From Blasia pusilla (lineage: Eukaryota), in the NCBI GenBank assembly GCA_050084515.1, contig CM114271.1:7688001-7752000 (forward strand): a stretch of 64,000 nt of DNA, read 5' to 3'. The translations under genes were made by a program, and so were the position numbers. Below, piece by piece: positions 19,720-45,520 of this stretch. The notes under the pieces were generated by a model. It ran no database searches and was not told the origin of the DNA. It was given only the letters and a program-made list of their open reading frames with translations. Each line of letters opens with the position of its first letter. Positions within the stretch are counted from its first letter, which is position 1.

Positions 19720-19797
19720 ACCGCCCCCCTAGCTGGTAGTTGGATCCCCCTAACTTCAGATAGAAAATATCACATCTCTCTAACATAACCTACTATC

Positions 19798-19950
19798 CTA
19801 TACACATCTCAGACACATCCATCGTCCTGTGGGAACTACATCAAGAGGGGGGGTCAGACATGACATATGCCACCCTCGAGAACAACCATCACATACCAAC
19901 ATGGTGGCTGCACCCCTCGCAGATCCGCACAACATACACCTCAAGCTTGC
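19798..19950 (-). other. PHD finger (C4-H-C3) at integrase C-terminus, copy B
   Basis: [46 protein letters not shown] has canonical PHD spacing, including the conserved W before the last CxxC. Confidence 0.92.
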
Positions 19951-21903: not shown

Positions 21904-21998
21904 TTGTCAACAAGGTCAAAGACCTTGTTGACAAAAAGTGGGGCTTATATTAGTGGGGATTCTTACCAAAATGGTAAGAATCCCCACTAATATAAGCC
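21904..21998. repeat. Two adjacent perfect hairpins (14-bp and 27-bp stems, 3-nt AAA loops)
   Basis: ttgtcaacaaggtc-aaa-gaccttgttgacaa (21904-21934); ggcttatattagtggggattcttacca-aaa-tggtaagaatccccactaatataagcc (21942-21998). Confidence 0.95.
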
Positions 21999-22169
21999 GT
22001 CTTCGCACTCTCTGCTCGAACGACGTCCCAAGAAGTCCATGGGTGCCTATCTCTCCTCGTCCCACCCCCAGGAAATGCCTATACAGACCCTATGGGAAAT
22101 GGTCCAACTCCTAGACGTGACGGCATGGATGACACTCGCATCCGCCTCAGCTTAGCCATACCTAGGTTG

Positions 22170-23530: not shown

Positions 23531-26500
23531 CTCCTCTGGACACTACCACACAACGGGTTTGGTATCCAGTGGGGTCAACGTCTCCACTCTAGGAGCCCGA
23601 TCGCCACCTGACTCTCGCTGCTCCGGGATAAAGGCATGACTCTACGCCTGCCCCACGAGGTCGTTGCCACTCCTCTATAGCTCTCGAGTCGTACCCCACA
23701 ATGGTGAAGAGGTCTCGCCAACATGGGTAGAGACACCCGCCATGGTCTGTCTCTCCGTGGGACTATCCGCTACTGGGACATCCTCCGCATGTGTTCCCCT
23801 CCAACAACTCTCTTGGCCTGCTAACACTACCTATGAAAGCTGCCAACGTGGTCATAGACTCGTCTCGTGCTCCACCACCTCATCCCGCAAACTGCACGGA
23901 TAATTGACTCATCCGCCCGTCACTTGACCGCCATCCTAGCCGATAAGCAACAATCTCCTCCCAGAAGTCAAGGATGAATCCTAGGGGATATAACATTGTA
24001 CTCCCCACCAATACATCGTATGACTCAGCTGGTGTCATAATCGCACGTGTGCGCACCATAGCACTATCCGTCGCATGCTCTGACTAGACTCTGACAACTA
24101 TCTCCTGTCGAGTCATATATTGCGTAGGTGACACGCCCCCAATCGAGGTTTGTATCTAGAAGGGACAAGTCTCAATGTCGGCCTTCCGTAACCACAACGC
24201 TAAACATGCCACCTTCTCTAACATCAAGGGTTGCCCTCCTGAATCAAGTAAGACACGTTGCGGGTGGTATACTGTCCCGGTCGGACTAACCAAGCGAAAT
24301 ACTCCAGCTTCGTTATCCAATAACACTACTCAAGGTGTCACCACTGCTCGCTCAAAGGCAAGTCGAGCTGGCATATCTACCAACTTTGCCGCCGCTGCAT
24401 GCCATGACTCTCTGGGGGACGTTCCGAGCATCGGCTCTGAGGGCAAGTCCACCACCTCCTCAACTACCTCCGAACAAGAAGTAGTCACCTCTCCACGCTC
24501 AATCAATGTGGCGGCCATCCGGAACACCTCAGCTGGTCCAACACCCAACGTCGCCAACTCTATGGCGGAAAATAGCGGAGTCTGACTCACTCTAATGGCC
24601 ACCTCCAACATTATGATCCACATTGACTCCACTCGAGCCGGCATAGCAGTTTTTACTCCAACTCCTCATGATGTCGACGTACTTGCATGAGCTATAGGCA
24701 CCGCTGGTCGTCGAGGCACCATCGATGGTGTGAGTAGTGCCTCCAACAATGTAAATGACTGTGGAATCCTGGCTTGCCGCCCATCGGTCCCCTCCGGTGG
24801 GTCAATCCCAACTCCACCTCTCAATGGCTCGGTACCTCTCGTAGCACCCCGAGTCACCACTGCAACTGCCTCAACCTGAGCTACACTACACATAAACCCC
24901 ATACTAGGAAGATCCTCACCCGGATCAAGATAAGAGGTAGAAGCTGGGGCCACACTAGCTGCTCGCGGCTGCGTGCCTTCCTTGAGCTGCATCTTCGTAA
25001 TGGCAGCAATCCTCTGCTCCAACTAATCGTTGCGTGAGAGAAGTGCCGGCTCTGATGCTCTTGCTCCATCTCCTCTGGCTGGTGGTGGTCCTCTATCACC
25101 ATGTACAGGAAGAACTCCCTGACCCCCTCCAAGACAACCACCCCAGGCCCTCGGCCTACCTCTGGACGTGCCTCTCGACGAAGGTCAAAACATGTATCCC
25201 TAGTGTGACCATATCTGTGGCAATAGTCACACTTGTATTATGGTGGGGCCATCCTATGTGGCTCTTGAGAAATCGGAGGCGCTCGTGGTCCTCCCATCTG
25301 TCCCTGCTGGGCAACATATGTAGGTACGGGTCATTGCCTCATAGGCTCACGGTACCCGCCCTCCTCTCTGGGCACACTGGCCAACTCCCGTGGTAATGGT
25401 GCTTGTTGTGGCACCTGTGGGATCACCGTCGCTCGTGGACCCGTAGACTCTCGAGAAAATCCAGCGGTCATTACCTCCTCCTCACTCATCTTGAGCTCAA
25501 TACGCTCAGACAACTCAAAGACCACCTTCAATGTGGGCTTTGTTGTGTGAATCAACACCTCATCTCGGACTCTCCTCCATAGTTTTTGGTCTAAAACCTC
25601 ATACCAATACTGGACTGACTGCACCTCAGTCACACCATACGTAGCAATGATGAGCCTCCTCATGCTCGTGAATGCCTCTCTCAGACTCTCACCTGATCAT
25701 CGCTGAAAATCCTTTAGACTCTTCAGCTTGCCGGTGTGTACGCCCTGGTAGCTCTTTCCCAACTGTCGGAAGAACTCCACTGTGGGATTGAAGCTGGGTG
25801 GCCCTCTACCACCAGAGGTCTCTGCTACATCGTCTGTCTTAGTGCCCTCCTCTCAATCTAGTCTCCAGACTGATGGTGTGGGTCTCTCTCCTCTCACGAT
25901 CCCATCATATACCTCCCGACCACTAGTGGACACATACCCTAGAGCCCAATACATCCTCCAAGAATTGATCTCTACTGAATACTGATTGAAACTCCATGTA
26001 ATCATCCATTGGAGGACCCTCCAAGTGCTGGAACAACCCCTTCCATGCCATGAAAGGGTTGAACCGTGTCGGGGTCCATATCTCTTGGAAGTCGCACCAC
26101 GTGTCGAACTCCCGGATGAAATCATATAAGTCGATGGTACCCATTGCACCCGAGAAACGATGCATGCCCCAATGGCCCATGTCATCCATCTCCTGCCAAG
26201 TGATACTGCCTTCGTCTGCAATCTCATCACCAGACCCAATGTCTAGTGATGTCGATCCAGTCACGGATGAATGTCGAGGTAGCTCCTCGTTGGTAACCCC
26301 TTGGTATCTCACTCCACTCCGTGTCACACCACTACCACTGCTCGCATTACCCCGTTCTTTCAAACCTTGGAAGAACGTCGTGATGACAATCCTGTCTCAC
26401 CCGCTCAAGCCCTCAGACTCACTGAGAGTCTCCCACACTCCTCACTAGCTCACCGATGCTAATGATAATCCTGTGATGGCACACCCGGCCTCACGCACAC

Positions 26501-27033
26501 TCAACACTCGGGCTCACCATGAGCCTCCCAACTGACTCACCTAACCTACCGACACTCTCGGGTCATACATGCGACCCCTACTCGGCAACCGCCATATATC
26601 CACCAACATGCTACACATGAAAAGAGTCTACACTTGTCACCATCACTCCACCCACCAGCATCAGCTCCTACCCAGTACCCAACACTCTCAAACACATAAG
26701 ATAAGTGCGAGAAAAGAGACTCGAATGGGTAATATGATCACGTCCACCAACCTATTGCATCGTCAACATCCACTCCATATGTGTGGCATGAAAACCTCCG
26801 TAGCACAACCATCTCCTCGCACACCCGTCAAACCTCCCGTCAGCATCGGCATGTGTGTCCCCATCTCAACCCTCACAACTCCCCCGAGGGGGGGGGGGAC
26901 TAAATGCAGGAGAGGGGAGGGTAAGGGATAGGCCGCGGCTTTGTCTGCCTCCGCCTCCGGCTCGGAGTCACCTGCAACCTAGCCGCACTTGCAATCCTAG
27001 CCGTGGCGGCTATAAACTCTCGACATGTTCTCC

Positions 27034-27318
27034 CTACACTCCCGTTGTGCGCCGTTCTCTCGACGCTCCAACACTCTACGTTGCACCAGAGCGCTCGATA
27101 TTTTCTCTCTACACTCCCGTTGTGCGCCGTTCTCTCGACGCTCCAACACTCTGCGTTGCACCTAAGCGCTCGATATTTTCTCTCTACACTCCCGTTGTGC
27201 GCCGTTCTCTCGACGCTCCAACACTCTGCGTTGCACCTGAGCGCTCGATGTTTTCTCTCTACACTCCCGTTGTGCGCCGTTCTCTCGACGCTCCAACACT
27301 CTGCGTTGCACCTGAGCA
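27034..27318. repeat. 75-bp tandem repeat (~3.8 units) in the 5' leader of copy B
   Basis: Unit ctacactcccgttgtgcgccgttctctcgacgctccaacactctgcgttgcacctgagcgctcgatattttctct starts at ~27034, 27109, 27184 and 27259. Confidence 0.95.
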
Positions 27319-27534
27319 CTCCTGCGTGACCCCCACTCTGTTATTGTCCCTCGTCAACCTGCACCAGCAAAATCTGAGAAAAACAGACAGCGCTTCCGCC
27401 CACGGCCTTCTAAACAGAAAAATGACCAATGAAACGCCAACCAGCGTCTCTTGGGGCTTCCCACCGAGGCAACTCGCTTGCCTACCTACAAACAAGGAAT
27501 TTCCACCAGCCCCTTGACATCTGTCTCATTTAAA

Positions 27535-28012
27535 AATAAAGGGTAGCAAATATGGCACATCCGGTCTAAAACTCCACTCTTCAATCTACATCGGCATATC
27601 AAGCCTCGTCCAACCTGCTCTATCAAGGAATCCGGCCACTTGCACCCTAATCCTATCTCACACACATACAAGAGAGTTGCTCCAACGGCCCAACATGAGA
27701 AAGATGGCTTGGGAAAGCCATCTTCCTCCCTAATATAGGGTTGGGAAGAGCCAAAAGGCTCTTTCCCCTAAAAATAGCTATCCTCTTGGTAACCTATGCG
27801 CACAAGTTACCAGGGGAGGATGACGTGGTCAACAAGTCACCCGGTTGTGAAAGACCTCGATAGGAAAGTTGTCAGAAACAACGTTCTTGACACAATGGAC
27901 TTATCTTCAACCTCATCCGACATTGTGGGACAAAGTTACACTCAAGATAGTCCACTGGCTCCTACGCCCTATCCATGATAGATCTCGACCTATCGGCTAC
28001 TCAGATGTGATA
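27535..28012 (-). repeat. 5' terminal repeat A1 of copy B (A only, no B module)
   Basis: Direct repeat of 19099-19581; homology stops at the aaaaataaag run and the ~135-bp B module is absent. Confidence 0.85.
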
Positions 28013-28288
28013 TTGAGGAATAGTGAGAAGTTCATATGTAAATAGAGTAGTCTTTGCACTTAGAGTGGTTTTCAATGCATTATACGCAAGCAAAGAGTTT
28101 TCATCATTTACCCAGAGTCCGCATCTCATAATAGAAGATGATGGCTTCACAAAATTAAGAATGAGACTAACGAAAGATTAAATGCGTGAAGTTGAAATTG
28201 TTGTAAGTGCTACACCAGATCAAAGGTAAAGTGTACCTTTTGGAAGTTGTAGAAAACAATAATTATAAATGACAAATAATTGGAAGTA

Positions 28289-29208
28289 TGTCACGTCTTT
28301 TTGGATTGATCGATGAGTTTACAATCAAATGCCTTCGAATTCGAGGATACTAGAGAATAGCCTCAAGAGGTCAAGGATGACCTATTAAGGCCATAGGTAA
28401 CCTGAGAGAGCAAATTTTCCTTTTATTTTTGGCACATTTGAATCTATGAATAGAACTAATTGTTTTGGGTAAACTACCTTTATGAGTATATTTTACTTTC
28501 TACTTTGGGAAGTGGCCCTTGATCCCCTACAGTAGATTAAGAGCTAAAGAGATGATTTACGAGCATAGATTACCATTGAGAGAGCGTGTGTCACGTCTTT
28601 TTGGATGGATCGACGAGTTTATAGTTGAGTGTCTTTGAGGATATTGGAGGATAACCTCAAGAGGCCAGGGATGGCCTATGGAGGCCAAAGGTAACATGAG
28701 AGAGTAAGTTTTCTTTTTGTTTCGGCTCATTTGGAGCTATAAATAGAAACTAACTTTTTTGGGCAAGATACCTTTATGAGTTTCTACTTTGGAAAGTGGC
28801 CCTTGATCCCCTATAGCAAGTCAAGAGCCAAGGAAGTGACTTACAAGCATAGATTACAATGAAGAGAGCTTAGAAGAGGGAAGGGGGTATACCCTAAGAG
28901 GGAGATCTTTGGAGCTCATTCTCTCTTTGTTGAACCTCTTGGCATGAGGCAACAAAACTATGGTCCTCCTTGCCTTGTGAATAAACCAAGCCTCTCATTG
29001 GGAGAATGGGTTTGGTTTTATGAGAGAGAGAGATATGCAGTTGTGTGAACATTGCAAGAGATATTTGAGAGATCTTGATTTATTGGAGATTTTTTCGTAC
29101 TTGATGGTCTCGATGTTAAGATGGCATGAGTTAGTATGGTATCTTGTGTGTTTGTGTGTATTTGATGACAACAATATATGTTACATGGCGACGTCTATGC
29201 GCACGACA
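28289..29208 (+). repeat. Family-Y terminal repeats: partial A (28289-~28584) followed by a full A+B unit (28589-29208)
   Basis: Both start tgtcacgtcttttt; the second ends tatgcgcacgaca. Similar to 47415-48018 and to the reverse complements of 29450-29860 and 48510-48997. No TSD found. Confidence 0.8.
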
Positions 29209-29868
29209 TGATCATATTCGTCATCATCATGTTAGTTTAGCTAACCAAGATGTTAGCTGAACTAACATAAGGTCCTCTTAAAGAGGTATCAGGTTCAACT
29301 CTCCCCTTGGACAGTGGGGGACTGTCTCAATCCAAAGGCAATGGTGCCCCCAATCTAGGGTATGGATGGTCCATGTTCAAGAGAGAGAATACCTTGTGTT
29401 CCTTTCATGTGTGTGCCTTGACTATTATCGTGCCCAAACATTGATGTTGTGGGTTACACTCATAACGCAAGGGACCATAGCTCGGCCGCCTCATGCCAAG
29501 AGGTTCAACAAAGAGAAAATGAACTCTTAAGCTCTCTCTCCTTGAGGTATACCCCTCCTCTCTCCCAAGCTCTCTCCATGGTAACCTATTCTCCCAAGTC
29601 ACCTCCTTGGCTCTTGACCTGATATAGGAGGTCAAAGGCCACTTACCAAAAATAGAAATTCGATCATATATTCAAAATGATACTTACCTAAAATAGCAAG
29701 TTCCTCAATATGGCTCCAAATGAGCCTAAACGAAGGGGAAACTTGCTCTCTCCGGTTTCCCGAGGCCTCAGCAGGTCATCCTCGATCTACTAAGCATGTC
29801 ATCCACTACTCACAAAGGCGCTCTACTAGATCTCACCGATCTATCCTAAAAGACGTGACAGTTGTCGT

Positions 29869-30488
29869 TGTCACATCTGAGTAGCCGATAGGCCGAGATC
29901 TATCGTGGATAGGGCGTAGGAGCCGACGGATTATCTTGAATGTAACTTTGTCCCACAGTGTCGAATGAGGTTGAGGATTGGTCCAATGTGTCAGGAACGT
30001 CGTTTCTGACGACTTTCATGCTGAGGTCTTTTACAGCCGGGGGACTTGTTTACCAAGTCACCCGCCCATGGTAACCTGTGTGCGTAGGTTACCAAAGGAA
30101 GGGCTATTTTTAGGGGAAGAGCCTTTTGGCCCTTCCCAACCCTATATAAGAGAGGAAGATGGCTTTTCTAAGCCACCTTTCTCATGTTGGGCCGTTGGAG
30201 CACCTCCCTTGTATGTGTGTGAGCTAGGACTAGGATGCTAGCGTCCGGATTCCTTGATAGCACAGGGTGGACGATGCTCGATATGCCGATGTAGATTGAG
30301 GAGTGGAGTTTTAGGCCGGGTGTGCCATTTTTACTACTCTTTATTTTTGTTGTGTGATCTCTATGTATATGTATGAGTTGATTTTTTTGTACATGTATGG
30401 ATGGACCCGTGTGTGGGGAAGATCGGTGTTGTGTGGTGTAGATGTGACAAGCGATGTATGTTGTGTAGCGATATGTATGCGCACGACA
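29869..30488 (+). mobile_element. Solo A+B repeat (family X, as in copy B) with 4-bp TSD TCGT
   Basis: Reverse complement of 18964-19581; termini tgtcac...cacgaca; TCGT at 29865-29868 and 30489-30492. Confidence 0.9.
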
Positions 30489-30776
30489 TCGTGCGCATAC
30501 ACCTCGCTACACAACATACATCGCTGTCACCGAACACGCACGATCCCATGCTAACTCATGGCATCCAAATAACGAGACAAGAAGTACTAAAATATCTCTA
30601 ATCGCCCCCCTAGTTGGTGGTTAGGTCCCTCTAACTCTAGATAGCCATCTATCCCTACCTACCATGACATACATCTCTCGGACGCTAAGAGCAAGAAGGC
30701 CGGGTGCTCATGTGGCCCCATCGTTAGTCGCCTTCCTATCATCCATGTCATAGAAAAAGTCGGAATCGAAACCTAC

Positions 30777-32017
30777 CTAGTATCTCCTATATGTACATCT
30801 GGGACACATCCATCGTCCCCGAGGAACCCTAGTGAGAGGTGGCGTCAGACATGCCATATGCCAACCTCTCGAACATCCATCACAAACTAGCAACGTGGCC
30901 GCACCACAAGCAGAACCACACAACATACAACGCAAGCCTGCAAGAACTACTGATGAGCTTGAATCTTCTATACCATTAATATTAGGAAGGTGACATGGCG
31001 CACAATTACGCACATGGTCCTTCCATACCATACCATCGCGTCCCTCCAAGAAGATAACACCGGATGGCAAAACGTCACGCTCTCTCAGGATAGTGCGCCC
31101 TACAATCACATCCAACGTCGACGGTGCTGTCTCCTCGAAGTAGACATAATCTCCTTGATGAAACCTCCAGATAGTTGGTCGATAACCACCACACCGAATA
31201 GTCGCATATCTCAACGTATCCCGATGTTGCGCAATTTCCAAGTTGTCGAACGCCATAAGCATTATTCTCCGAAACAACTCAACCCTCTCAAAACATGCTC
31301 GCATCCATACATCTGGGTCATCAAGGTCCTGCATCTTACCAACATCTCGACGAATGGCTGAAGGTAAATCTGGCTCTCAGCCATAAAGTAGCAAGTACGA
31401 TGAAAAAGACGCTAAAGATGTCTGCCTGCTGAATCAGTATTCCATCGCCAACCATGGCAATGGAGGTCCCAATCTCCTAGGTGACCTCTCTGCAAGCCAT
31501 ACATGCGTAAACCCCTCTTCATCGTCTGCATAACTCTCTCCGCTAATCCATCTGCCTCGGGATGATCTCGCGAAGTGGTGTAGTGGTCGATCAACGCCTG
31601 ATCACACAATGCTTGGAACTCACCGCGAAACTCGGTACCCTGGTCTCTCAACACCTCAGCCGGTGCGCCATAATGACTCAACACTCTGTCAAGGAAGGCA
31701 TAAGCTACTCCCTCACTTGCTTTGTCAAGCAATGCAACCAACTCGATCCACTTTGAGAAGTGCTCGACCATCACCAACACATAACGACTATGATGCTCTG
31801 TCAAAGGCAAAGGTCCTGAAAAATCCAAACTCCATCTATACCCTAAGCCCATGATCGTTAATGGATGCAACTGTGGAGTCGGAGCATTGAACGATGCTCG
31901 AACCCGATCACACACCATGCACGTGGCAACAAACTGCTGAACGTCACTCTGCATGCCTTGCGACCAATACTGAATCTGGAGCAAGCGGTACGTCCGCTTC
32001 ATCCCAAAGTGACCCAA
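30777..32017 (-). pseudogene. DDE integrase with N-terminal HHCC and C-terminal PHD finger (copy C)
   Basis: GHFGMKRT...[76 protein letters not shown]. Confidence 0.92.
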
Positions 32018-32857
32018 CTCCTCGTAGGCATGTTGTACTAGTCATGCTCTCTGCAAAGGATGCGGCACTACGCGTATTGTGCCATCCTCCCAAACCCTCA
32101 AAATATGTGTCCCCTCCCAACGGAACCGTATGGCCCGCTGAAGGATCCGATCTCGCTCTCTAGCACCCACGGTGCTCGCAATCTGCCAATCCAGAGGTAC
32201 TCCAAGACTACTCCATCATTATGAATATCTCGGCCATCTGTCGTCTCCTCACTGGTCTCGGGATCCAAGGACTCTCCACTAGACCTCGCCATCAAAGTCT
32301 CCACACTCTGGCTCTCCATAGCCAACATGCCTAAATAGGCTGACCCGTGCCATCCTGGCACTGACTCCTCATCACTCTCTCCATGCCATCGAGCTCTAGT
32401 CGCATCTCGCTGACTCGAGCATGGGTTACAACTCAACCCATCTGCATCCTGGTTGAGCTTCCCAAGTCTATGTACCACTTGAAAATCATACTCCTGCAAC
32501 AACAGAGCCCATCTCGCAAGCTTCCCAGTAAACTTGTCGGACTCCATCAACAACTTTAGTGGTTGATGATGAGTGATGATGGTAAAGGGATTGCCGAATA
32601 AGTAACACCTGAAATGCGCGACAACCCACACTGCAGCCAAGCACTCACCCTCATACGAGTTGTACTTCGCCTCTGTAGCGTTGTTCGAGCGGCTAGCGTA
32701 AGCCACCATGAACTCTCTACCCTCATCATCATGTTGGGTGAGCACCGCTCCAAGCCCCAAAATGCTCCAATCTGTGTGAAATTGGAAAGGACCCCCCCCT
32801 GATCGGTCTCCTCAAGATGGGCGTGGACATCAACCTATCCTTGAGCAAATAAAATGC

Positions 32858-33862
32858 TCACTCATGCTCATCCCCCCAGTGCCACTCGTGATCCACCTTG
32901 GTCAGCAAGGTCAGCGGCTTCGCAATTGGACTAAATCCCTTGACATACCGCCGATAGAAGTTCGCCAATCCCATGAATGCGCGAACACGGCTCACATTTG
33001 TAGGGCGTGGAATGCGTGAGATAGCCTCTACCTTTGTCAACTGAACATCAAGGCCCCTTGGGTATATCATATGAACCAAGTACTCAATCTGGTGGTAAAA
33101 GAACTTGCACTTGCGTGGATGTAGATTCAGCCCATGTAATTGCAATCGTTGAAACATCTCCTCTAGATGTCGTTCATGCTCCTCAACCGTGGGGCTAAAG
33201 ACTACGATGTCATCAATATAACACCTAGCAAAATCCACACCAGCCAAGATCCTATCCATGACCCTTTGAAACTCATCCGGGGCATTCTTTAACCCAAATG
33301 GTAAGAACCGCCACTGGTACAAACAATCCTTCCCATGAGGATCGATGCTCGAAAATGCCGTCTTCTGCCTGTCCTCCAATCTGATAGGCAGCTGATGGTA
33401 TCCGACTCGCAAATCCAATGAACTGAAAACCTTTGCATGACCAATCGCATCAAAGATCTCCTCAGGGGTGGGCATGGCATACCTATCGGACTTCGTCTGC
33501 CGATTGATAGGTCGGTAATCCCCACACATCCGCCTATCCGTCCACTTGCCATGCACATCCTTCTTGGCGGGCATGAAAGTGGCACATGCATACTCCCCAT
33601 GCGACATCTCCACTAGTCCTGCTCCAACCAAGTCCTGGCTCCTACTCTGAATCAGAGCCCTCTCCATATCAGTGTATCTGTAGGATGGTCGAAAGATCGG
33701 CGTATCAGTCGACAACTCAATGCGGATCCCCGGTCCCTTCAGCATACCCAAATCCTCCATGCTAAACGCAAAGCAACTCCTATAACTCCTAAGGAACTGA
33801 TGTATTCGATGTTGCTCTCCTCCTGTCAACTTAGGGCCCATATCTGGCTCACAAGTCTCCAT
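32858..33862 (-). CDS. Ty3/Gypsy reverse transcriptase (334-aa open segment, copy C)
   Basis: RRMCGDYRPIN, DRYAMP, FSSLDLRVGYHQ, LPFGLKNAP, YIDDIVVFS, KCKF, VRAFMGLANFYRRYV. Confidence 0.93.
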   Translation of the reverse strand: METCEPDMGPKLTGGEQHRIHQFLRSYRSCFAFSMEDLGMLKGPGIRIELSTDTPIFRPSYRYTDMERALIQSRSQDLVGAGLVEMSHGEYACATFMPAKKDVHGKWTDRRMCGDYRPINRQTKSDRYAMPTPEEIFDAIGHAKVFSSLDLRVGYHQLPIRLEDRQKTAFSSIDPHGKDCLYQWRFLPFGLKNAPDEFQRVMDRILAGVDFARCYIDDIVVFSPTVEEHERHLEEMFQRLQLHGLNLHPRKCKFFYHQIEYLVHMIYPRGLDVQLTKVEAISRIPRPTNVSRVRAFMGLANFYRRYVKGFSPIAKPLTLLTKVDHEWHWGDEHE

Positions 33863-34209
33863 CGTGACTACCGTAGGACTCTCCGGCGCGGATATCGGTG
33901 GTTGTTATGGTGCAACCCTGTCTCGAACAACAATACTTGACCGCTCTCCTGTAGCCAACTTCAAAATCTGATCTCCTCCACATGTAGTGCCCGGAACTAT
34001 GCTCGATGTTGTGGCTATCATCTCCTGGCATACTTGCAAAACATCCCAAGAAGTCCAAGGGTGTCTCTCTCGATCTCCCCTGGTGTGTAAATCTCCTTGG
34101 GTCTCGCCCCCCGCCATTGCCTCCACCATCTCGGTAGGCATGGGGCTCACCAACGCAACCGCTGTGATCTGTCACGATCTCAGCCGACGCTGCTAAGCCA
34201 CTCCGAAGC

Positions 34210-35160
34210 TAAAGATCCATGTCAAGTTGTTGAGGTCCATCGCTTGACCCAAGACATGGCGTCGTGATGCCTCTGATACTGACGGGATTGCCGTCACTCC
34301 CGTGGGAAATCCCATCGCCCGCTCTCTCTCTTGTCGACGTTGGGCTCCACCAACCTCTGAACGTGGTCATCCCAAACCAAGCCAAGACCGGCCTCCTTGT
34401 ATGCATACGGAGCGGGAAAACGCACAAACGTGGGAAAGGCTGCCCTCGTCTTGCCTACTCTATTGACCACAGTCAACGGTGGTCAATCATCATGCCTCAC
34501 TGCCTGAGAGCGACGACCTGGATCTAGAATGGAATCCACTAACAAATGGGAGGGGCACTCCACTCTCGCATACGACTTCCGTAACACCGCATGGGGCACC
34601 AAGTTGGTCCACCATAAACGCAGGCGATGGGCTCTAGAACCTACACTTGCCGCATTCAAGAACACTACTGGGCCGATCGAGGCACACACCTGATGAGCAC
34701 TCGTCACCACTCGTGACCTGGAGTCTCCTAAGATCGGCACATTCTCCACAATGTAGGTTGGAGAACAAGACCGATGCTCCTGCAACTGCCATAAGACCCT
34801 CAACATCTCCCAAAACAACCTGGACCGAGTGTCAGCCAACCCGCTGCCTCGTCCAGCACTCGATTGGCCCTCACATGGCCAACCGGCAATGACCAAATTA
34901 ATGGTGCCTAAACGGTCTAAGTCCTGCGCCCCCAACAACGAAATATCCCTCGGTAGTGAACTCTGGTATCCCTGTACCGCGGACGCAGACAATAAGTCGG
35001 GAAAACGTAGGCGTAATTGCGCCACATGTCATAGCGAGATGCGCCTCGCAACATCATCACTCTCCACATACAGGTACTATTGTACTCGCACTCCTGCCTG
35101 TAAAACAACAACTAACCCGGTGCCAATCCCTCCAAAGAGATCTAACACTCGAATATCCTC
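34210..35160 (-). pseudogene. DNMT3-like C5 cytosine methyltransferase domain (copy C), all main motifs present, with stops and frameshifts
   Basis: I: RVLDLFGGIGTG; II-like: YLYVE; IV: INLVIAGWPCEG; V-like: GLADTRSRLFWE; VI: YIVENV; VIII: GSRAHRLRLWWTNL; IX: ERAMGFP; X: HVLGQAMD. Confidence 0.92.
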
Positions 35161-38100
35161 CTCCGCAATACACCACACAATGGGTGTGGTATCCAAGGAT
35201 GTCATCGTAGCACTCCCTGCTACCTCGGGTTCCTCAGACCTGTCATGCTTCTGTGCAAACGCCTCACTCCACGCGATTTGCACGTGCTCATCTTCCAATC
35301 ATCAAAGCTCCTCAATCGAGCCCCACAGCGGCACCTCTCCTCCACGGAATGATGCGGCTACCATAACACTCCTCTCCATAGAAATTTCAGGAACGGGAGT
35401 ATCCTCTGCATGGACATGTCCCTCAATCAAATCAGTAGGCCAAGTGATGGCACTGCTAAATGCTGCTAAGGTCGCCATCTCTCCTGGCCGTTGCTCGATC
35501 ATTGCACATGTGAATCGAATGGATAATGACCTAAGGCGCCCATCACCTTACTGCCATCTTGGTCTGTAGGACGTTGACTCTTCCCTGTAGTCCAAGGAAA
35601 ACCCCATCGGGTATAACACTGTTCCACCAACCAAGACGTCCTACGACTCTGCATCAGTCACTATCGCCTTGGCTTGCACCACCGACTCATCTGTAGGATA
35701 TCCCGGGCGAATCCTCACCACGACCTCCTATCGGGTGATATACTATGTGGTACTTGCTCCACCCAAGGATGTCTGTATCCGGAATGGACAACGCTCCACA
35801 TCAGCTCTCGTCAAACCCAATCCTTTGAATGACGCTTTCCCCAACATCAGGGGTTTCGCTCCTGAATCCAACAAGACACGTTGCAGACTAAAAGCTCTAC
35901 CTCCGGGACTCACCAATTGGAAGACCTCTCCTCAATTATCCAGCAATACAACAATAGTCCTTCCGATGTTATGACGTTGGGGGTACGCCTCGGCGGGCGT
36001 ACCCCCAACGTCATAACATCGGAAGCAGAAAATAAAGGAGCGCGATACACAATGGTGGCCGCCCCAACAACGTGCTCGACACATGCCCCTCCTGAGCATC
36101 AACAATAGGAGTCGTTGTACTTGCTTCTCCCATCACCCTCCGTGCTTGCACACCTACAATGTCACCAACTCTCAAGGAACTCTGATCAAGACCCATCGAT
36201 GGGGTCCTCATCACCTCGAACAACGTGAAAGATTGAGGAAGCCTAGTCTGTTTCTTGGCTTCCCCTCACTGTGGATCCAACTCTACGGCTACTCCACGTG
36301 TCACAATTGCAGCGGCCTCCATCCAGGCAACCCCGCACATCCAACCAGGATCCTCCATATCTCTGGCTGCTCCATATGATGTCAATGCCATGGATCCGGC
36401 GTCGGGTAATCTCAATGCCATAACAACAATCTGCTTCTAGCTGATGTATCTGAGCAGCCATCCTAGCCTCACGCCCGGCATCTCCCTCGACGTGTCTAAG
36501 TGGTACGACTCTACCTCCTCCACGCGCAGCTCCACCACCATGTTGGGCAACTCCAGCTCCTCGTCCCCCAACGGGACCACCTGGTGCACAATCTCTAGGC
36601 CTACCCGGACCGGGTACTCGTTCTGGTGCCCTCTCTGGCCCTCGGTCCGGATGTAACTCACGATGTAAAATGAAACACCTGGCGCGTGTATGACCATACC
36701 TTTGACAATAGTCACACTGATAACATCCTGATGCAGCACCATCTCCTCCTCCATGTTGAGGCACACGTCCATGACCCTGACGAGTGCAATCGTACTGATG
36801 ATGGGCTCCACCACATGACCAACAAGTAAAAGTAGACGGCTACTATTGAGCCGCATATGAAGGCGTAGGTCTCTGTGGCACGGCCTCCCGATATCGTCCT
36901 TGAGCTCGTGGTGCCACAGTCGACCTATCTCGGAGTCCACGTTGCTGCACAGGTAGTGCAGCCAATCGTGACTACTCTCGCCCAGAACCCATGGTGGCTA
37001 CGCTCTCCTCCGCCATGATGCGCTTAATGTTCTCGGGGGTCCTAAAAACATCTCTCAACGTAGGGGAGGTGTTCATAAGAAGCACCCCCTCCCGCAGCCG
37101 TGTCCGTAGGGTCCAGTCTAGCATCGCGTACCATGACTAGATAGCCTGAGCCTCTATCATCCCCTGAGTGACGTTGATCAACCGGCGCAAGCGAGTGTAA
37201 GCCTCACGCAAACTCTCACCCGGGCGCCTCTGGAAGTCGTGGATGCTCCACAAGTTCTCCGTCCGTACTCCTTGGTAGCTCGCCCTCAACTCAACAAAGA
37301 ACTCAACCACATGGTTGAACCTGGGATGAACCCAACTAGACGGTGCAACAGCTCTCGTATAAGTGACCCCTCCTAAAACGTCATAAGTGGAAGAGGAATT
37401 AGCCTCTCCTGACTCCTCCTCCTCATCTGGGAATGGCTCCGTCCATGACACATAATGTGGGTCATAGTAGAGCCTCCATGCCTCGATCTCACATGCATAT
37501 CTTTGAGAGAACTCATGGTAATCCTCCATGGGCGCCCCCTCTAAATGCTAGAACATACCGTTCCATGCTGTAAACGGGTTAAACTCTCTAGAGTTTTTGG
37601 CCTGTTGGGAGTTGCACCAACTCCTAAACTCTCTTTTGAAATCGTGAAACTCAATCGTGCCTGCTGCATCTGAAAACCTACATGGTCCTCTACCCCAATC
37701 GTCCATCTCGTACGCCCAACTAGTAGGACCACTCACAATGTGTGGCGATGTGCTCACAAAATCCTCTACATGCTCCCCCTCGTCTGAAGACCAAACTTAG
37801 ATAAAAAGAGATTGAGGTGGTCTCTCACATGGAGACCCTCAAAACCTTGCACCACTTCGGGTAAATCCTCAAGAGCTATTCTCAGGTATACTACCTCGCC
37901 TCTCAAAATCCTGAAAGGATGGCGTGATGGCCCTCGTGCCCCTCTCACACGATCACTCTCAACCGTGTGAGTAATCCCTCAATCACTCATCCCAAATATA
38001 CGGCACGCAATCTACACTCTCCCTCCCCGAGACCTGTAACGTGCGGCAACAAGCGGCGTGGTGCAGCAAATCGACCAGGCTATCATCTCATTGAAAATCT

Positions 38101-41100
38101 ACCCTCAACTCCGGACATCCCCCACAAGTCTATGTCCCCTAAAACACATACATAAATGATGCTCTCAATATCCACACAACCCAATATCCCCAAATAAACC
38201 ACCCAAATCCCAGAATCCCTCACGCGTGCAGGATAAAGGACCAGAATGGGTAACCTGAACACATGTCGATGTCGCTCCTCAGCAAATGCAAATCTCAACC
38301 CCAACTTGGTCGTGAGGACAACTCCTCCAATGAGCAAGGCATACTCCTCCTATACTGACGCTACTCAAAACTCCTTGATAGACAGTGCGGTTCCAACATA
38401 ACGGTTGCGGCGTTGCAGGCAGCACGGAACGGCTACGAACGACACGGCCCTCAATGGTGTGATGCGGCATTCGGCGGCATACCCTCCTCAATCAACAATA
38501 AACCCACACTCTGCTCCACAATGATGGTGCGACTCCGCAATTGAGATGGTGCGGTGCGGCCACGAGCGGCACGGCGCGGCAACCGGCAGTCACGGCACGG
38601 TACTTGATCGTCGTCGAGCGGCTACCAATCACAACATAGCAACATGAAATCTAAACTCAAACACCATAACCAGAGGTCATCGGCCATCACTGGTTGATGA
38701 CGAAACTTTGAGGATGGTGACGGCCAAAACAAAGTATGTGATGGCAACGCAAGTCAGAGAATCAACGAACGTCGTGGAAGAACCTCCACTCGGTAGTGGC
38801 GGCAATGGCAACCAAAGGGTGGACAACGGTTGATGGTGGCCGGTGGACGGTGGACCATTGACGGTGATGGTTGAACATTGATGGTGACAGTTGACCGTTT
38901 GACTGGTGACGGAGACGGCCGCTGCCGGCGTGGCGGCTGGTTTAGGGTTTTAACAATTCAACCATAAAAATTGCCTAGCAATGGCAGTTTTGCAAGATTG
39001 ACCATAAATTTTTACTTGCAACTCTAAATTTCACATTGTTTGTTGCACAATGTGCATAGCTTTACGATCTAAAAAGCCGCCAAAAAATATTTGAGATTGG
39101 ATATTCCTGTAAAAACTGACAGGGACTGTTGTAAAGCCCAATGTCTCTTTCTCCTACACAAAATTTGGCAGCGCTTCCGCGCTGATTTCTCCCAACCAAA
39201 ATGTAAAACCTCTAAAAATAAAATCAGAAACGGGTTGATCTCTTTTTATCTAAGTTTTTATCTAAGTTTCGTCTTCAGACGAGGGGGAGCGTGTAGAGGA
39301 GTTTGTGAGCACATCGCCACACATTGTGAGTGGTCCTACCAATTGGGCGTACGAGATGGACGATCGGGGTAGAGGACCACGTAGGTTTTCAGATGCAGTA
39401 AGCACGATTGAGTTTCACGATTTCAAAATAGAGTTTAGGAGTTGGTGCAACTCCCAACAGGCCAAAAACTCTAGAGAGTTCAACCCGTTTACAACATGAA
39501 ACGGTATGTTCCAGCATTTAGACGGGGCGCCCATGGACGATTACCATGAGTTCTCTCAGAGATATGCATGCGAGATCGACGCATGGAGGCTCTTCTATGA
39601 CCCACATTATGTGTCATGGACGGAGCCATTCCCAGATGAGCAGGAGGATTCAAGAGAGGCTAATTCCTCTTCCACAAGTGACGTTTTAGGAGGGGTCACT
39701 TGCACGGGAGCAGTTGCACCGTCCCAGATTCAACCCTGTGGTTGAGTTCTTTGCTGAGTTGAGGGCGAGCTACCACGGGATACGGACGGAGAAGTTGCCG
39801 AGCATCCACGACTTTCAAAGGCGCCCGGGTGGGAGTTTGCGTGAGGCTTACACTCGCTTGCGCCGGTTGATCAACGTCACTGAGGGGGTGACAGAGGCTC
39901 AGACTATCCAGTCATGGTACGCGATGCTAGAATTGGACCTTGCGGACACAGGTGCGAGAGGGGGTGCTTCTTATGAGCACCTCCCCCTACGTTGAGAGAT
40001 GTTTTTAGGACCTCCGAGAAAATTGAGCGCAACATGGTGGAGGAGAGTGTAGCCACCATGGGTTCTTGGGGAGAGTAGTCACGATAGTGTGCACTACCTG
40101 TGCAGCAACGTGAACTCCGAGATAGGTCAAATGTGGCACCACGAGCTTAGGGAGGATACCGGGGGGCCGTGCCACAGAGACCTGCATCTTCTTGTGCGGC
40201 TCAGCAGCAGCCGCCTACTATTACTTGTTGGTCATGTGGTGGAGCCCATCATCAGCGCCATTGCACTCGTCAGGGTCATGGACGTATGCCTCAGCATGGA
40301 GGAGAAGATGGTGTTGCAGAAGGAGGTTATCAGTGTGACTATTGTCACAGGTATGGTCATACATGCGCCAAGTGTTTCAGTTTACATCCTGAGTTAGGCC
40401 CGGACTGAGGGCCAGAGAGGGCACCAGAACGAGTACCCGGTCCGGGTGGGCCTAGAGATCGTGCACCATGTGGTCTTGTTTGGGGACGAGGAGCTGGAGT
40501 TGCCCGACACGGTGGTGGAGCTGCCCATGGAGGAGGTAGAGTACCACCACCTAGACGCGCCGAGGGAGACGCCGGATGTGAGGCTCGGATGGTTGCTCAG
40601 ATTTCGCACCTTCAGGAGCAGATTGCCATTATGGCATTGAGGTTACCCGATGCCGGATCCGTGGCATCGACATCATATGGAGCAGCCAGAGATCTGCAGG
40701 ATCCTAGTTGGATGTGCGGAGTTGCCCAGATGCAGGCAGCCGGAGTTGTGACGTGTGGAGCAGCCGCAAAGTTGGATCCACAGCGAGGGGAAGCCAGGAA
40801 ACAGACTAGGCTTCCTCAATCTTTCACGTTGTCCGAGGCGATGAGAACCCCATCGATGGGTCCAGATCAGAGTTCTTGGAGAGTTGGTGATGTTGTTGGT
40901 GTGCAGGCATAGAGGGCGATGGGAGAAGTGAGTACGATGACTCCTTTTGTTGATGCTCAGGAGGGGCATGTGTCGACCACGTTGTTAGGGGCGGCCACCG
41001 TTGTGTACCGCACTCCTTTATTTTATGTTTCCGATGTTATGATGTTGGGGGGTACGCCCGCCGAGGCTTTTCGGTTGGCCGCTTCACTATGTGAGCGTGG

Positions 41101-41744
41101 AGTTCAAGTTCCTGCATCATGTTCAGAGGTGATTGTAGAGGAGATGATGGACTTTCCCTTGGAGCAGATGCTCGGGCCGTCCACGTCAGATTCATGGCAG
41201 GCTTTGGCTGCTAGGATGGCGCAGATGCCCGCTAGACCCGCGATAGAGCGTGCCATGGCTCCTCCTGGTGTTGTGTTGCTGGATAACCCAGGAGAGGTCT
41301 TCTAGTTGGTGAGTCCCGGAGGTAGAGCTTTTAGTCCACAGCACGTCTTGTTGGACTCAGGAGCACAACCCCTGATGTTGGGGAAAGCATCATTTTGAGG
41401 ATTGGGCTTGACGAGAGGTGATGTGGAGCGTTGTCCATTCCAGATACAAACATCCTTGGGTGGAGTGAGTACCACACAATATATCACCCGACAGGAGGTC
41501 GTGGTGAGGATTCGCTCGAGACATCCTACAGATGAGTTCATGGTGCAAGCCAAGGCGATAGTGACTCATGCAGAGTCCTATGATGTCTTGGTTGGTGGAG
41601 CAGTGTTATACCTGATGAGGTTTTTCCTGGATTCCTGGGAGGAGTCAAAGTTCTACAGACTAGGATGGCCGTCAGGTGATGGGTGCCTTAGCTCATTATC
41701 CATTTGATTAAAAAATGCAGTGATCGAGCAATGGCCAGGAGAGG

Positions 41745-44660
41745 AGAGGAGAGGAGAATAAAATAACGAAGTCTAAAGACCCAACAAGAAGCTTCGAAAT
41801 GACAACAAAGCTCTGTCTATGAAGTGCTTCGCTACATACCGAAGCATGAAGAAGAGAAAGAAGTACTTCGCTCTTTAACAAAGCTCAAATAACAAAGCAC
41901 TAGGAACAAGAACAAAGAATGGAGCGCTTCGTCTTCAGATCAGGAGAAAGAGCTTTGTCTTCAAGTGAAGCAAAAGAGGTCCCAACTTAGGAGCGAAGCA
42001 AAGCTTAGATTGATAATGATTTCAAGCGACACATAGTTAGAACAGTTAGAATAGGAAAAGATGCAACCCTTTGTATCAGATTGGTATTTATGACAATTTT
42101 GTTCTGCGGATTCCCAGGGATCATAGGAAAAGCAAAGAGCACCATAGATCTAAGTAGTTACAAATGTTGAAGAGACACCATCTTCGTAAAAAATGCTTCG
42201 AATCTTTGGATCACTCCTCCTTTAGAGAGTATTTAAGAAGCAAAGAAGTAGCTATCATCATCATTCTCTTACGAAGTCCTCATGCTGTAGGAATGGTCCG
42301 AGCAAGGGAGTAGTATCCTCTCGAGCTTGTATACACTTTGAAGCTTTCTCATTCTTGATGGAGTAGTAAAGCAATCATTCCTTCATTCTGATGTGCGATG
42401 CTTATGTCTGAGTATTCTTTTTGGGTCTGCAGAGTGAAGAGTGATTTAGGCGAACCTTTCTCATCAATGGAATAATCAACATAAAGTTGTAGGAAATTTG
42501 TTTGACAGAGAGTAGCCTGCCGAGATGGATTGAGTTCCGAAAGTAGGAGAAGCCAGCTTTCATGTTCAGGTCTCTGTGAGGTTTCTTGATATGGAGAGGA
42601 AATCTACCTGAGCATGCTGTCAACTCCACTAGAGAGAATTGAGAAAAGAAACTTTGGTACTAAGAAAGATCCGAAGATATTGATAAGACATTGAATATAA
42701 ATCATACACATTTAAATATCGCTATTACAATAGAATTGTAATTTCGAACTCTCTTTTCATCAAACAATAATCCTCTTGGGGATCGAACTTATTAAACGAC
42801 TGTAAAATAGAAACTCTTGTACATTACATATAGATCCAAAACTTTTTGGCGCCGTTGCCAGGGATCATAAGCTTTGCTGGAGAGGGAGAGAGACACATGG
42901 GGAATCAAGAGCGGGGAAAAAAGCCTCGTCTCCTAGAAGACCCAACCATCTAGTTCTTACTGAAGACCATCTGCTATCTCTAGCTATCCCCCTAAGACAA
43001 TGGATGAAAGAAGATAACAACCGGTTTGCTGCATTGGTGCTAGAAGAGATAGAACAATTAATTAGTTTTGTCAAAGAACCAGTCGCCAAACGGTGCTTTG
43101 CCCATGAACGTTAGATGTACTCGATGATGACCCGATACTTCTGTTTATGGGAGGAAAACCTGGCAAGAAGATTAAGAGCACCTTCACACTCCTCTGGGCT
43201 TCAGGAATTAGGAATTAGGAATATCTAATTTTCCTCCATGGACCCCTACCTTGTGGCGATCGTGGGTGCGAAAGCAAGCTCCCGAATCCCAGAAGGGACT
43301 CATGGAAGTCTCCCGGCCCTCTTCGCGAGATCAGCGAGCTGATCGACGCAATAAGCAACAAGAAGATCACCCATCTTGGAGACCGTCGGGGGTGTCTCCC
43401 TGTCTTCATCTTTGCTTGAAGCCCAAGAGCAAGAAGAGGGACAGGAATACGCTCCCCAGCACGTCTCCTGCCAGTTTGCAGTCGAACAAAGAGTCAACCT
43501 GGAAACCCTTTGGGGACTCGGGGGACCAAGAGATGACCAAATCAACTAGATTGAAACCGTTGCCTCCTCCCTCCCAAGCATCAAGCCCGGGACCCAGCAT
43601 CAGACATTTCCCAATGGCCAACACTAGGAAGACGCTGCTAAGATACCCCACGTTTGCAGGGGGATGGCGAGATGATGTTGACAACTTTGTGCTTGAATTT
43701 ACCCATGTAGCTAAGGCTAATGGAGAAGGCTCAGAGGAGGATTTGTTGCGAGTCTTTCCTAGCCTGCTTAAGAAGCAAGCAAGCCAATTGTACGAGGGTC
43801 TCGGAGCGGACGTCACGGAAACCTGGAAAAAGGTACTAGAGGCCTTTCTTCATGAGTTCCGTGACCTGGAGTTCGAGGACAGGCTTTTGACAAAGCTTCG
43901 CGACCTGAAATGTAAAAAGAAGGAAAACTCTTAGGGCATACACCCAAAGGTTTCATAGCCTTGTGAATAAACTTGAACACACTACTACCTCACAATTGGT
44001 AGATTGGTTTGTGTCGGGACTGTCCAAAGAAATGGACCAGTACTGCCGGCGAGGCCAACGAGATTCCCTGGAAGCAGTCATAGCATCCGCAAAGGCATAC
44101 GAGGCCTCTGAGAAGTCTCGTAAAACACGAAGACGGCGTCATCAACGACGAGGTTCTTTGCAAACTAGTTCTTCGTCCGAGGACAAAGCGTCCTCTACAG
44201 ACACAAAATCCTCTACTGGGGACACCTCGGAGTCCTCGGAGTCTGAAAAAGATTTAAAATCTAAGCGGAAAAGAAAAAGCACGCGCCACCACTCTCCCAA
44301 GCATCGAAGGAAAACCATACCAACAAAGCACCTTCCCCAGCCGTCGGAAAGTCCAGTATGGGGGACAACAAGGAAGGCAGGCAAGTATGCCATTGAAGAG
44401 TTAAGTAAGCAAATGGCGGAGTTGAAGCTACATCTGGCGGCCTAGAAGGATCCCAGAAGACGACCAAGTCTGATGAGGCCCAACATCTGGTGCAGTACCT
44501 TCGGAACCCAAGGGCATACTGCTCAAGAATGTCATACTAAGAGAGATTTACGTTGGATCCAAGAAGATCCAACTATAGAAGAAGGATGGTATGAACCCAA
44601 ACAGTGGGAAGGGTGTTATGCAATCCAAGCTGTGCCACCGCCTAATCCCGGACGAAGTTG
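41745..44660 (+). mobile_element. Unrelated Athila-like Gypsy fragment: LTR part, PBS, degenerate gag
   Basis: PBS at 42847; gag-like MANTRKTLLRYPTFAGG...FPSLLKKQASQLY from ~43613; decayed knuckle WCSTFGTQGHTAQEC ~44490-44532; no pol. Confidence 0.7.
42847..42866 (+). promoter_or_regulatory. Primer-binding site complementary to the 3' end of tRNA-Asp
   Basis: tggcgccgttgccagggatc differs at one base from TGGCGCCGTTGCCGGGGATC, the recalled plant tRNA-Asp/Athila PBS. Confidence 0.8.
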
Positions 44661-44669
44661 GATCACCCG

Positions 44670-45520
44670 ATGTAATGATGTTGCGAGGCGCGTCTCACTA
44701 CGACATGTGGCGCAATTACGCCTATATTTTCCAACTTATTGTCTTCGTTTGCGGTACAGGGGTACGCAAGTTCCGTACCGAGGGATATTTGTTGTTGGGG
44801 ACGCATGACTTAGAGCAGGTAGGGACCATTGATTTGGTCATTGCTGGTTGGACATGTCAGGGCCAATCAAGTGTTGGACGAGGGAGCGAGTTGGGTGACA
44901 CTCGGTCCAGGTTGTTTTGGGAGATGTTGACGGTCTTACGGCAGTTGCAGGAGCACTAGTCTCGTTCTCCAGCCTACATTCTGGAGAATGTACCGATCTT
45001 AGGAGACTCCGCGTAACGGGTGGTGACGAATGCTCATCAGGTGCATGCCTGGATCGGCCAAGAAGTGTTCTTGGATGCGGCGAGTGTAGGTTCTAGAGCC
45101 CATCGCTTGCGTCTCTGGTGGACCAACTTGGTGCCCCATGCAATGTTACGAAGGGCGTATGCAAGAGTGGAGCGCCCCGCCCATTTGTTAGTGGATTCCA
45201 TTTTGGATCCAGGTCGTCACTCAGAGGCAGTGAGGCACAATGATCGACCATCGTTGACTGTGGTCAATAGGGTAGGCAGGCCGCGGGCAGCCTTTCCCAT
45301 GTTTGTGAGTTTTCCCGCTTCCTATGCATACAAGGAGGCTGGTCCTAGCTTGGTTTGGGATGAACAGGTTCAGAAGTTGGCGGAGCCCAACGCCAACAAG
45401 AGAGAGCGAGCGATGGGATTTCCCACAGGAGTGATGGAAATTGTTAGTATGAGAGGCATCACGATGCAATGTCTTGGGTCAGGCGATGGACCTGAATTGC
45501 TTGATATGGATCTGCAGCTT
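44670..45520 (+). pseudogene. C5 cytosine methyltransferase domain (copy D), motif I lost at the insertion
   Basis: TIDLVIAGWTCQGQS, YILENV, GSRAHRLRLWWTNL, KRERAMGFP, LGQAMDLNCL. Confidence 0.87.

Follow-up and report, generated by a model that had tools for sequence, protein, structure and literature searches.

In a 64,000-nucleotide stretch of Blasia pusilla DNA (contig CM114271.1, positions 7,688,001 to 7,752,000 of the forward strand; hereafter the window, with all coordinates counted from its first letter), we identified four copies, A to D, of a Ty3/Gypsy-like retrotransposon family. Their polyprotein carries a DNMT3-type DNA cytosine methyltransferase (DNMT) between the aspartic protease (PR) and the reverse transcriptase (RT). 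The best explanation, to which we give a probability of about 0.8, is that these are four dead, rearranged copies of a family of the KnitGypsy-Dnmt3 kind, described in the alga Klebsormidium nitens as a DNMT3 domain inside Gypsy-type elements with DIRS-like repeats (de Mendoza et al. 2018, PMC5890265). The copies were found by comparing the window with itself and by tblastn with intact relatives; the latter located the DNMT at the same place between PR and RT in 4/4 copies, as had been noticed in an earlier inspection of the letters and open frames of this DNA (the sequence-only reading).

Organization of copy C

Copy C (30777-37807, minus strand, as are all its features) is the only copy with the full domain order. 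Its stop-to-stop frames and Pfam matches gave, from 5′ to 3′, a gag with a CCHC zinc knuckle, PR, DNMT, an in-frame stop, RT, RNase H (RH), integrase (INT) and a PHD finger. The gag (36243-37796) aligns with the gag of a Marchantia protein (P0005) and contains the knuckle motif at 36675-36716. It is followed by the protease region (35200-35991, with LLDSGA at 35857-35874) and the C5 methyltransferase (34196-35217), which share a single reading frame. A TAA CAA CCA stop context was mapped at the DNMT/RT junction, the stop itself occupying 33905-33907. Downstream lie RT (32858-33904; RVT_1, 3.2e-29; YIDD at 33206-33220), RH (32098-32811; RT_RNaseH, 2.7e-32), an integrase with an H2C2 zinc domain and an rve core (31412-32041; Integrase_H2C2, 3.1e-13, and rve, 7e-12) and, C-terminal to it, the PHD finger (30795-30929; PF00628, 1.7e-10). 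The copy is decayed.

The protease gave no direct Pfam match on copy C or on P0005, and no retropepsin was found in the profile search against Protein Data Bank (PDB) sequences. The copy C stretch carries a D-S-G motif and aligns with two relatives (P0101 and P0123) in which Asp_protease_2 and gag-asp_proteas match, and it is assigned as a probable protease by this motif and by transitive homology. The order PR-RT-RH-INT with gag upstream is that of Ty3/Gypsy elements, the protease being placed in it by motif and transitive homology only.

All six main methyltransferase motifs reported for copy C in the sequence-only reading were located, in unpermuted order: motif I, DLFGGIG (35122-35142); motif IV, GWPCEG (34867-34884); motif VI, ENV (34735-34746); motif VIII, AHRLRLWWTNL (34600-34632); motif IX, ERAMGF (34307-34324); and motif X, LGQAMD (34235-34252). 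Motif IV reads PCE in copy C and PCQ in copy B and the relatives. The reading frame of the domain is broken by four stops and, near 34324-34330, by a frameshift.

The methyltransferase is closest to DNMT3

The Pfam family DNA_methylase (PF00145), on which the sequence-only reading had made its assignment depend, matched copy C at E 1.5e-9 and 38.2 bits, above the cut-off of 22 bits; the copy C translation with stops written as X (P0001) matched at 2e-9 and 37.8 bits. Searched alone against PDB sequences, copy C found DNMT3A first (4.9e-10), then DNMT3C and DNMT3B (about 5e-10), with DRM (1.4e-4) and M.HaeIII (5e-3) lower. A profile built from 35 domain sequences and run against the same sequences gave a wider spread: DNMT3A 9.8e-26, DNMT3C 4.8e-23, DNMT3B 3.3e-22, tobacco DRM 4.8e-15, DRM2 1.3e-11, M.HhaI 5.9e-8 and, far weaker than DNMT3, DNMT2-type enzymes from 1.3e-4 to 9.5e-3. 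No DNMT1 or chromomethylase (CMT) was found by this profile among PDB sequences at E up to 0.01. By this ranking of solved structures, which is not a tree, the domain lies nearer to DNMT3 than to DRM, DNMT1/CMT, DNMT2 or the bacterial enzymes. In the 35 sequences, the PC, ENV, AHRxR and WTN residues show no variation or are conserved in at least 90%.

An AlphaFold model of the intact domain of a relative (L001) had a pLDDT of 94.5. In Foldseek, its best listed matches were all DNMT3A, 3B or 3C, with template modelling (TM) scores of 0.79-0.83 on targets of about catalytic-domain length; the top match was 6f57_D (E 8.6e-21, TM 0.83 on the target). Profile ranking, fold and motif order thus agree with the proposal that the domain is DNMT3-like and unpermuted, unlike DRM.

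The host enzymes DNMT3A, 3B and 3C in the PDB are the best sequence and fold matches and have the same motif order, but their identity with the retroelement domain is only 20-23%. They also carry PWWP and ADD domains in cis, whereas the retroelement domain has neither and is embedded in a polyprotein: Pfam scans of the copy C pieces and of two Marchantia proteins (P0005 and P0009) found no PWWP or ADD reader. The domain is therefore a DNMT3-like catalytic domain only, without the canonical N-terminal readers.

Copies A, B and D and their decay

Copy A (3-4151, plus strand) is cut by the start of the window and has its DNMT at 1402-1848. Copy B (18964-28010, minus strand; DNMT at 22193-23533, PHD finger at 19804-19938) is the sole copy with both ends. 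Copy D (39255-47413, plus strand; DNMT at 44674-45529) lies head-to-head with copy C, with which it shares 87-89% identity, and its integrase is cut at about 47409.

All four copies are inactive through stops, frameshifts, deletions or insertions. In copy A the stretch from ENV to motif X is deleted, and RT is deleted too. In copy B about 470 bp of unrelated sequence (about 22235-22705) replaces motif IX, and the RT core is missing. Copy D has lost motif I to a foreign insert of about 3 kb (41704-44674). In-frame stops within the DNMT number three in A, six in B, four in C and two in D, in addition to the deletions, insertion and frameshift; no copy in the window has an open, translatable DNMT gene.

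The loss of the RT core in copies A (about 1848-2251) and B (about 21918-22193) left DNMT, RNase H and integrase in place, and the deletion ends differ: in copy C coordinates, A is without 33832-32607 and B without about 33900-32913. The insert of copy D contains gag-like frames of a different retroelement, with a CCHC-like knuckle near 44500 and a weak Retrotrans_gag match below the cut-off (E 0.0071).

Within the window, C>T/G>A changes were in excess in copy A (258 vs 103) and copy D (168 vs 77), with no excess in copy C. Reads of related copies had C/G where the window has T/A at 174 places and the reverse at 64. The observed/expected CpG ratio of the copies (0.64-0.75) is not below that of the rest of the window (0.44-0.49). 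The mutation spectrum makes no clear case for methylation-driven decay.

Relatives and transcription

A protein search returned 27 longer homologues, including 15 from Marchantia polymorpha, two from Calypogeia fissa and two from Sphagnum. Among the Marchantia proteins, P0005 is an open gag-PR-DNMT of 1278 amino acids and P0009 is a PR-DNMT-RT-RH protein. When the search was made with a profile of the domain, its best 120 of 328 matches also brought in Riccia sorocarpa, Marchantia paleacea and further Sphagnum proteins, with no vascular plant among these 120. The 1.84 billion cluster representatives yielded 2820 matches with E no higher than 1e-3 and 146 clusters with E no higher than 1e-30. 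In metagenomes, relatives with the same layout were carried by 458 of the 598 pattern-matched stretches, from which 80 loci were retained. The domain of one of these, L001, is about 90% identical to Sphagnum proteins; the window copies themselves share no more than 59-62% protein identity with any relative found, so that none of the species named here is the host, and the copies place it among bryophytes by best matches. These relatives in public proteins and metagenomes, and the shared frame with the protease, speak against a domain that is merely local or off-frame, a possibility that had been raised with the first prediction.

The least decayed full element seen was a Sphagnum-type locus of a second subfamily (L056, 5515-10998), with one pol frame of 1828 codons, three stops and a complete set of A1-B1-A2-B2 repeats (see below). 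Many metagenome sequences have a second architecture, RT-RH-DNMT-INT-PHD, which was also found under the names of the green algae Monoraphidium, Cymbomonas and Scenedesmus. One protein with this order (P0096) is labelled at NCBI as from a 'Minisyncoccia bacterium' bin and most likely comes from a misbinned eukaryotic contig.

Reads of a DNA run with the same species label covered copy C patchily, the depth ranging from about 5 to 365. Of 4758 reads, only 170 were at least 99% alike to copy C, which points to many diverged copies in the genome. Three RNA runs gave 141, 198 and 170 reads on copy C, nearly all with first mates on the plus strand; assuming stranded libraries of the usual kind, this is weak sense transcription of family members.

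Terminal repeats and element ends

Self-comparison resolved four repeats in copy B, all on the minus strand. Repeat A1 (27532-28010) forms the 5′ end, about 1.36 kb upstream of gag, and is 90.6% identical to A2 (19102-19579). Repeat B1 (19584-19721), preceded by a purine-rich run, is 91% identical to B2 (18964-19101). The order of the element is A1, a 1.36-kb leader, the coding region, B1, A2 and B2. Between A1 and gag, the leader contains about five tandem 75-bp units (27013-27387; 150-nt windows 93-95% alike). The same set was found in three metagenome loci (L056, L064 and L076), with B1, A2 and B2 abutting; in none of these, nor in copy B, do two identical long terminal repeats bound the element. 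Pairs of B1 and B2 lie beyond the PHD finger in nine of the 13 loci with at least 1 kb of 3′ flank and are missing from the other four.

This A1-B1-A2-B2 arrangement, with internal repeats downstream of the coding region, is the 'split direct repeat' of PAT and Ngaro elements (PMC4157794). Those elements integrate by a tyrosine recombinase, whereas the window family has an H2C2 and rve DDE integrase. The tyrosine recombinase family PF00589 was absent from the Pfam scan of copy C and from the precomputed Pfam lists of the relatives, in which PF00665 is present. In this the family departs from the DIRS order, where a tyrosine recombinase stands in place of a DDE integrase.

Self-comparison of the window revealed no own terminal repeats for copies C and D, whose homology breaks off at equivalent points (37807/39255), with no repeated sequence inside 37807-39255. 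The different terminal repeats that the sequence-only reading had attributed to C and D were rejected as such, since C and D are flanked by an inverted-repeat element distinct from the family and by a B-type repeat lying inverted. The latter, an A-B repeat block at 29869-30490 on the plus strand, abuts the 3′ end of copy C in the opposite orientation and is not its own repeat. The copy C tail meets this block at an 87-bp palindrome (30444-30530). The head-to-head arrangement of C and D together with the palindrome suggests that the copies were duplicated in inverted orientation or recombined with each other, and did not arise by simple insertion.

The separate element, to which the repeats near 29450-29860 and 47415-48995 belong, is about 1.3-1.6 kb long and present in two copies (28589-29860 and 47415-48995) with inverted repeats of about 390 bp (77-80% alike). 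Related tandem units lie at 28286-28869, and the truncated copy D integrase borders directly on one of the two copies. In appearance the element is of a foldback or terminal inverted repeat type, unrelated to the DNMT family.

An in-frame stop between DNMT and RT

The stop of copy C has counterparts in copies A (2176-2178) and D (45772-45774), both reading TAG CAA CCA. In the three copies it falls at the identical codon and RT resumes in the same frame; it is thus present in 3/3 window copies that retain the junction. Among 24 closely related metagenome loci with the junction, this codon is TAG in 15 and TAA in 7, with CAA next to it in all 22; for the remaining two, extrapolation has probably misplaced the position. 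The Marchantia protein P0005 ends at about the same distance past motif X. As a control, the stops of L056, from the other subfamily, read Q, W or R in most sister loci and are on that account ordinary decay. A conserved UAG-CAA-CCN stop divides gag-PR-DNMT from RT-RH-INT.

UAG-CAR-YYA is the leaky stop context of tobamoviruses, and murine leukaemia virus has an in-frame UAG between gag and pol. The likeness lies in an in-frame UAG between an abundant upstream product and the polymerase; in the window copies, which read UAG CAA CCA, protease and methyltransferase stand upstream of the stop, and read-through is only proposed. On these precedents, gag-PR-DNMT would be the main translation product and RT-RH-INT-PHD would be produced only by ribosomes reading through UAG-CAA-CCN, a proposal that we favour with some reserve. 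The methyltransferase, lying upstream of the stop, would then belong with the abundant gag-PR product and not with the rarer RT-integrase.

The PHD finger and the proposed role of the methyltransferase

The integrases of copies B and C terminate in a PHD finger, as do those of most relatives, whichever of the two architectures they have. Its nearest relatives in the PDB are PHF12, CHD4, KDM5A/B PHD1, KAT6A, DPF3, PHF21A, ATXR5 and AIRE, several of which read the unmethylated H3K4 tail. Chromoviruses, which are Ty3/Gypsy elements with a chromodomain on the integrase, are alike in having a chromatin-reader module at the integrase C-terminus that presumably chooses insertion sites; they differ in that their reader is a chromodomain, and the window family has the PHD finger in that place. 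In the Pfam list of a distant relative (P0104), PF00385 stands beside PF00628. By analogy, the PHD finger may act as an insertion-site selector, steering the integrase to chromatin with a particular state of the histone H3 tail.

The methyltransferase would be made in Gag-like amounts and would enter the virus-like particle within the Gag-PR-DNMT precursor. In the particle or the pre-integration complex it could methylate the new cDNA, so that the insertion would arrive already methylated. Methylation of the element's own cDNA before insertion is a tentative proposal, to which we give somewhat less than even odds. The whole scheme of a leaky stop giving Gag-level DNMT, own-cDNA methylation and PHD-guided integration is plausible as a proposal, and it is the mechanism that we adopt.

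Several points weigh against it. The four window copies are broken, and L001 alone, among 28 metagenome loci that span the domain in one alignment, has a DNMT free of stops. In the second subfamily the frame runs from DNMT into RT without a stop, and CAR-YYA is fully matched by the window copies only, the Sphagnum-type loci reading CAA CCC. No replication scheme has been worked out for an element that pairs split direct repeats with a DDE integrase. The target of the PHD finger is guessed from the properties of its PDB relatives, and the function of the methyltransferase is likewise inferred. RNA reads are few, peak at 30500-31000 and leave the DNMT at a depth of 0 to about 1; being mostly 95-99% alike, they come from other copies, and they say nothing about an intact DNMT message.

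A working methyltransferase could also have another target: host chromatin or competing elements in trans, the insertion site after integration, or RNA. These options are listed in the Discussion of PMC5890265, where one retrotransposon DNMT is reported not to have methylated DNA in yeast. A position before the stop would also give a product able to act apart from RT and integrase. Against this stand the closest solved relatives, which are de novo DNA methyltransferases; for an RNA target in particular, the DNMT2-type RNA enzymes scored 1.3e-4 to 9.5e-3, as against 1e-25 for the best match. We consider such a target somewhat less probable than the element's own cDNA.

An equally doubtful alternative is that the shared stop is not programmed, with RT-RH-INT produced by splicing, re-initiation or a separate transcript, or with the stop being an old mutation in a dead lineage. 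The continuous frame of the sister subfamily, the dead state of nearly all copies seen and the departure of the Sphagnum-type CAA CCC from the viral context are in keeping with it. The stop is nevertheless found in the three window copies that retain the junction and in 22/24 loci of a different host group, at about 59-62% protein identity, and the CAA after it is kept in 22/22. A dead lineage is further disfavoured by the constraint on RT, RNase H and integrase, which lie downstream of the stop, between the subfamilies. Read-through of a conserved stop remains the preferred reading of this junction.

Selection on the methyltransferase

Ratios of nonsynonymous to synonymous substitution (dN/dS) were obtained from codons anchored, copy by copy, on intact reference proteins, with stop codons excluded. 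For the DNMT, dN/dS was 0.23 between B and C (311 codons), 0.14 between A and B and 0.25 between A and C; the B-C value, which the sequence-only reading had singled out as decisive, is not near 1. The corresponding B-C ratios were 0.14 for RNase H, 0.17 for integrase and 0.45 for the PR-DNMT linker, all of them rough since B-C synonymous sites are near saturation (dS about 1.3). The 0.66 found between C and D is as expected if it mostly reflects decay after insertion. The DNMT was under purifying selection while the subfamilies diverged.

The domain is in frame with the protease, lies at the same site in all four copies and was constrained between subfamilies, which supports the view that it is a stable cargo and not a chance neighbour. 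This part of the original proposal, a cargo kept across subfamilies B and C/D, held; the part about their different terminal repeats did not, own repeats of C and D not having been found.

That the methyltransferase is a neutral passenger or a decayed relic with no role in the life cycle would fit the broken DNMT of every window copy. It is very improbable in view of dN/dS values of 0.14-0.25 between subfamilies, as low as those of RNase H and integrase, of catalytic motifs conserved across 35 diverse sequences, and of a domain kept in liverworts, mosses and green algae. A Ka/Ks below 0.2 was also reported for the DNMT of the Klebsormidium copies (PMC5890265). That the DNMT stretches come from a fragmented host DNMT3 gene, or lie beside unrelated Gypsy fragments through a chimeric assembly, might be suspected in a region so heavily rearranged (head-to-head C and D, nested inserts, inverted repeat blocks), but this was rejected, as the four copies share their junctions and the protease frame, the same fusion occurs in independent public proteins and in the 458 metagenome stretches, and Pfam scans found no PWWP or ADD nearby.

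Comparison with known elements

KnitGypsy-Dnmt3 has an unrearranged DNMT3-type domain in Pol, Gypsy domains, DIRS-like repeats, purifying selection and a streptophyte host, and the window family shares every feature of this kind that was compared. The published repeats of SymbioDIRS run 'A-coding region-B-A...', and KnitGypsy is described with the same arrangement despite its Gypsy domains; methylation of the cDNA is discussed there as a likely role (PMC5890265). The host is an alga in that case and bryophyte-like here, and the two families are likened by published description and not by sequence: no Klebsormidium protein was among the matches listed in the protein and metagenome searches.

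Gypsy elements of green algae and metagenomes (such as P0025, Monoraphidium P0071, Cymbomonas P0107, Scenedesmus P0145) offer a further comparison. Their DNMT is 37-38% identical to that of the window, with a strong mutual match, and their rve integrase also ends in a PHD finger, but their DNMT lies between RNase H and integrase and not between protease and RT. With two positions in Pol, either the domain was relocated in the course of a single lineage or it was captured twice. SymbioDIRS-Dnmt3 of Symbiodinium is alike in having a DNMT3-type domain in the polyprotein and repeats of the A-coding-B-A type; it differs in its tyrosine recombinase, its DIRS order, its dinoflagellate host and its reported independent capture (PMC5890265).

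The sequence-only reading knew of no DNMT-bearing Gypsy elements in land plants. We likewise found no report of DNMT-bearing retrotransposons in bryophytes in a literature search that left supplements and most subscription journals outside its scope, nor any mention of them in the accessible parts of PMC6453930, PMC12344493, PMC11982613, PMC9998398 and PMC9940879. The accessible text of a 2026 preprint (10.64898/2026.05.21.726589) mentions only 'streptophytes (Gypsy-DNMT3)'. The same kind of element has been published for a streptophyte alga (PMC5890265), so the present family extends that kind to bryophytes and does not found a new one. From the sequences compared, what appears to be new is the abundance in liverworts and Sphagnum, the conserved stop that would place the methyltransferase with Gag and protease, and the PHD-tailed integrase. 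The split direct repeats, confirmed across subfamilies, and the two cargo positions in Pol are added to what was described.

Other features in the window

A Ty1/Copia-type element was mapped to 54820-59977, with direct repeats at 54820-55477 and 59321-59977 (96.2% over 663 bp) and a third, inverted copy of the repeat at 56898-57579; its open reading frame at 57650-58282 matches Retrotran_gag_2 (6e-8) and Pol_BBD (1.6e-6). An open frame of 327 amino acids on the minus strand (5376-6359), acidic and serine-rich, had no Pfam or Atlas match and may be a host exon. No Rfam family was matched in the window.

Implications

That retrotransposons encode an enzyme normally used to silence them is a published puzzle, and the case described in the plant lineage is an alga that is hard to manipulate. 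The intact annotated frames in Marchantia polymorpha move the question to organisms with good genetics and methylome tools, where three features offer experimental handles: the conserved stop, the integrase with its PHD tail, and the pairing of a DDE integrase with split direct repeats. For annotation, such domains inflate the apparent number of DNMT3 genes in bryophyte genomes; several relatives are named 'DNA (cytosine-5-)-methyltransferase' in public records.

In its fullest form, which we regard as speculative and, taken as a whole, rather unlikely, the scheme would have bryophytes, Marchantia polymorpha included, harbour an old and large lineage of integrase-bearing elements with DIRS-like split repeats and a two-part epigenetic kit, a DNMT3 catalytic domain made in Gag-like amounts upstream of a leaky UAG and a PHD reader on the integrase. 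Such elements would methylate their own cDNA and choose their chromatin. The two domain orders, PR-DNMT-RT and RH-DNMT-INT, in green algae and land plants would then mean that the cargo dates from before the move of plants to land and that it was retained thereafter while changing its place in Pol. If this is true, the element would write its own epigenetic state and would not merely be a target of host silencing.

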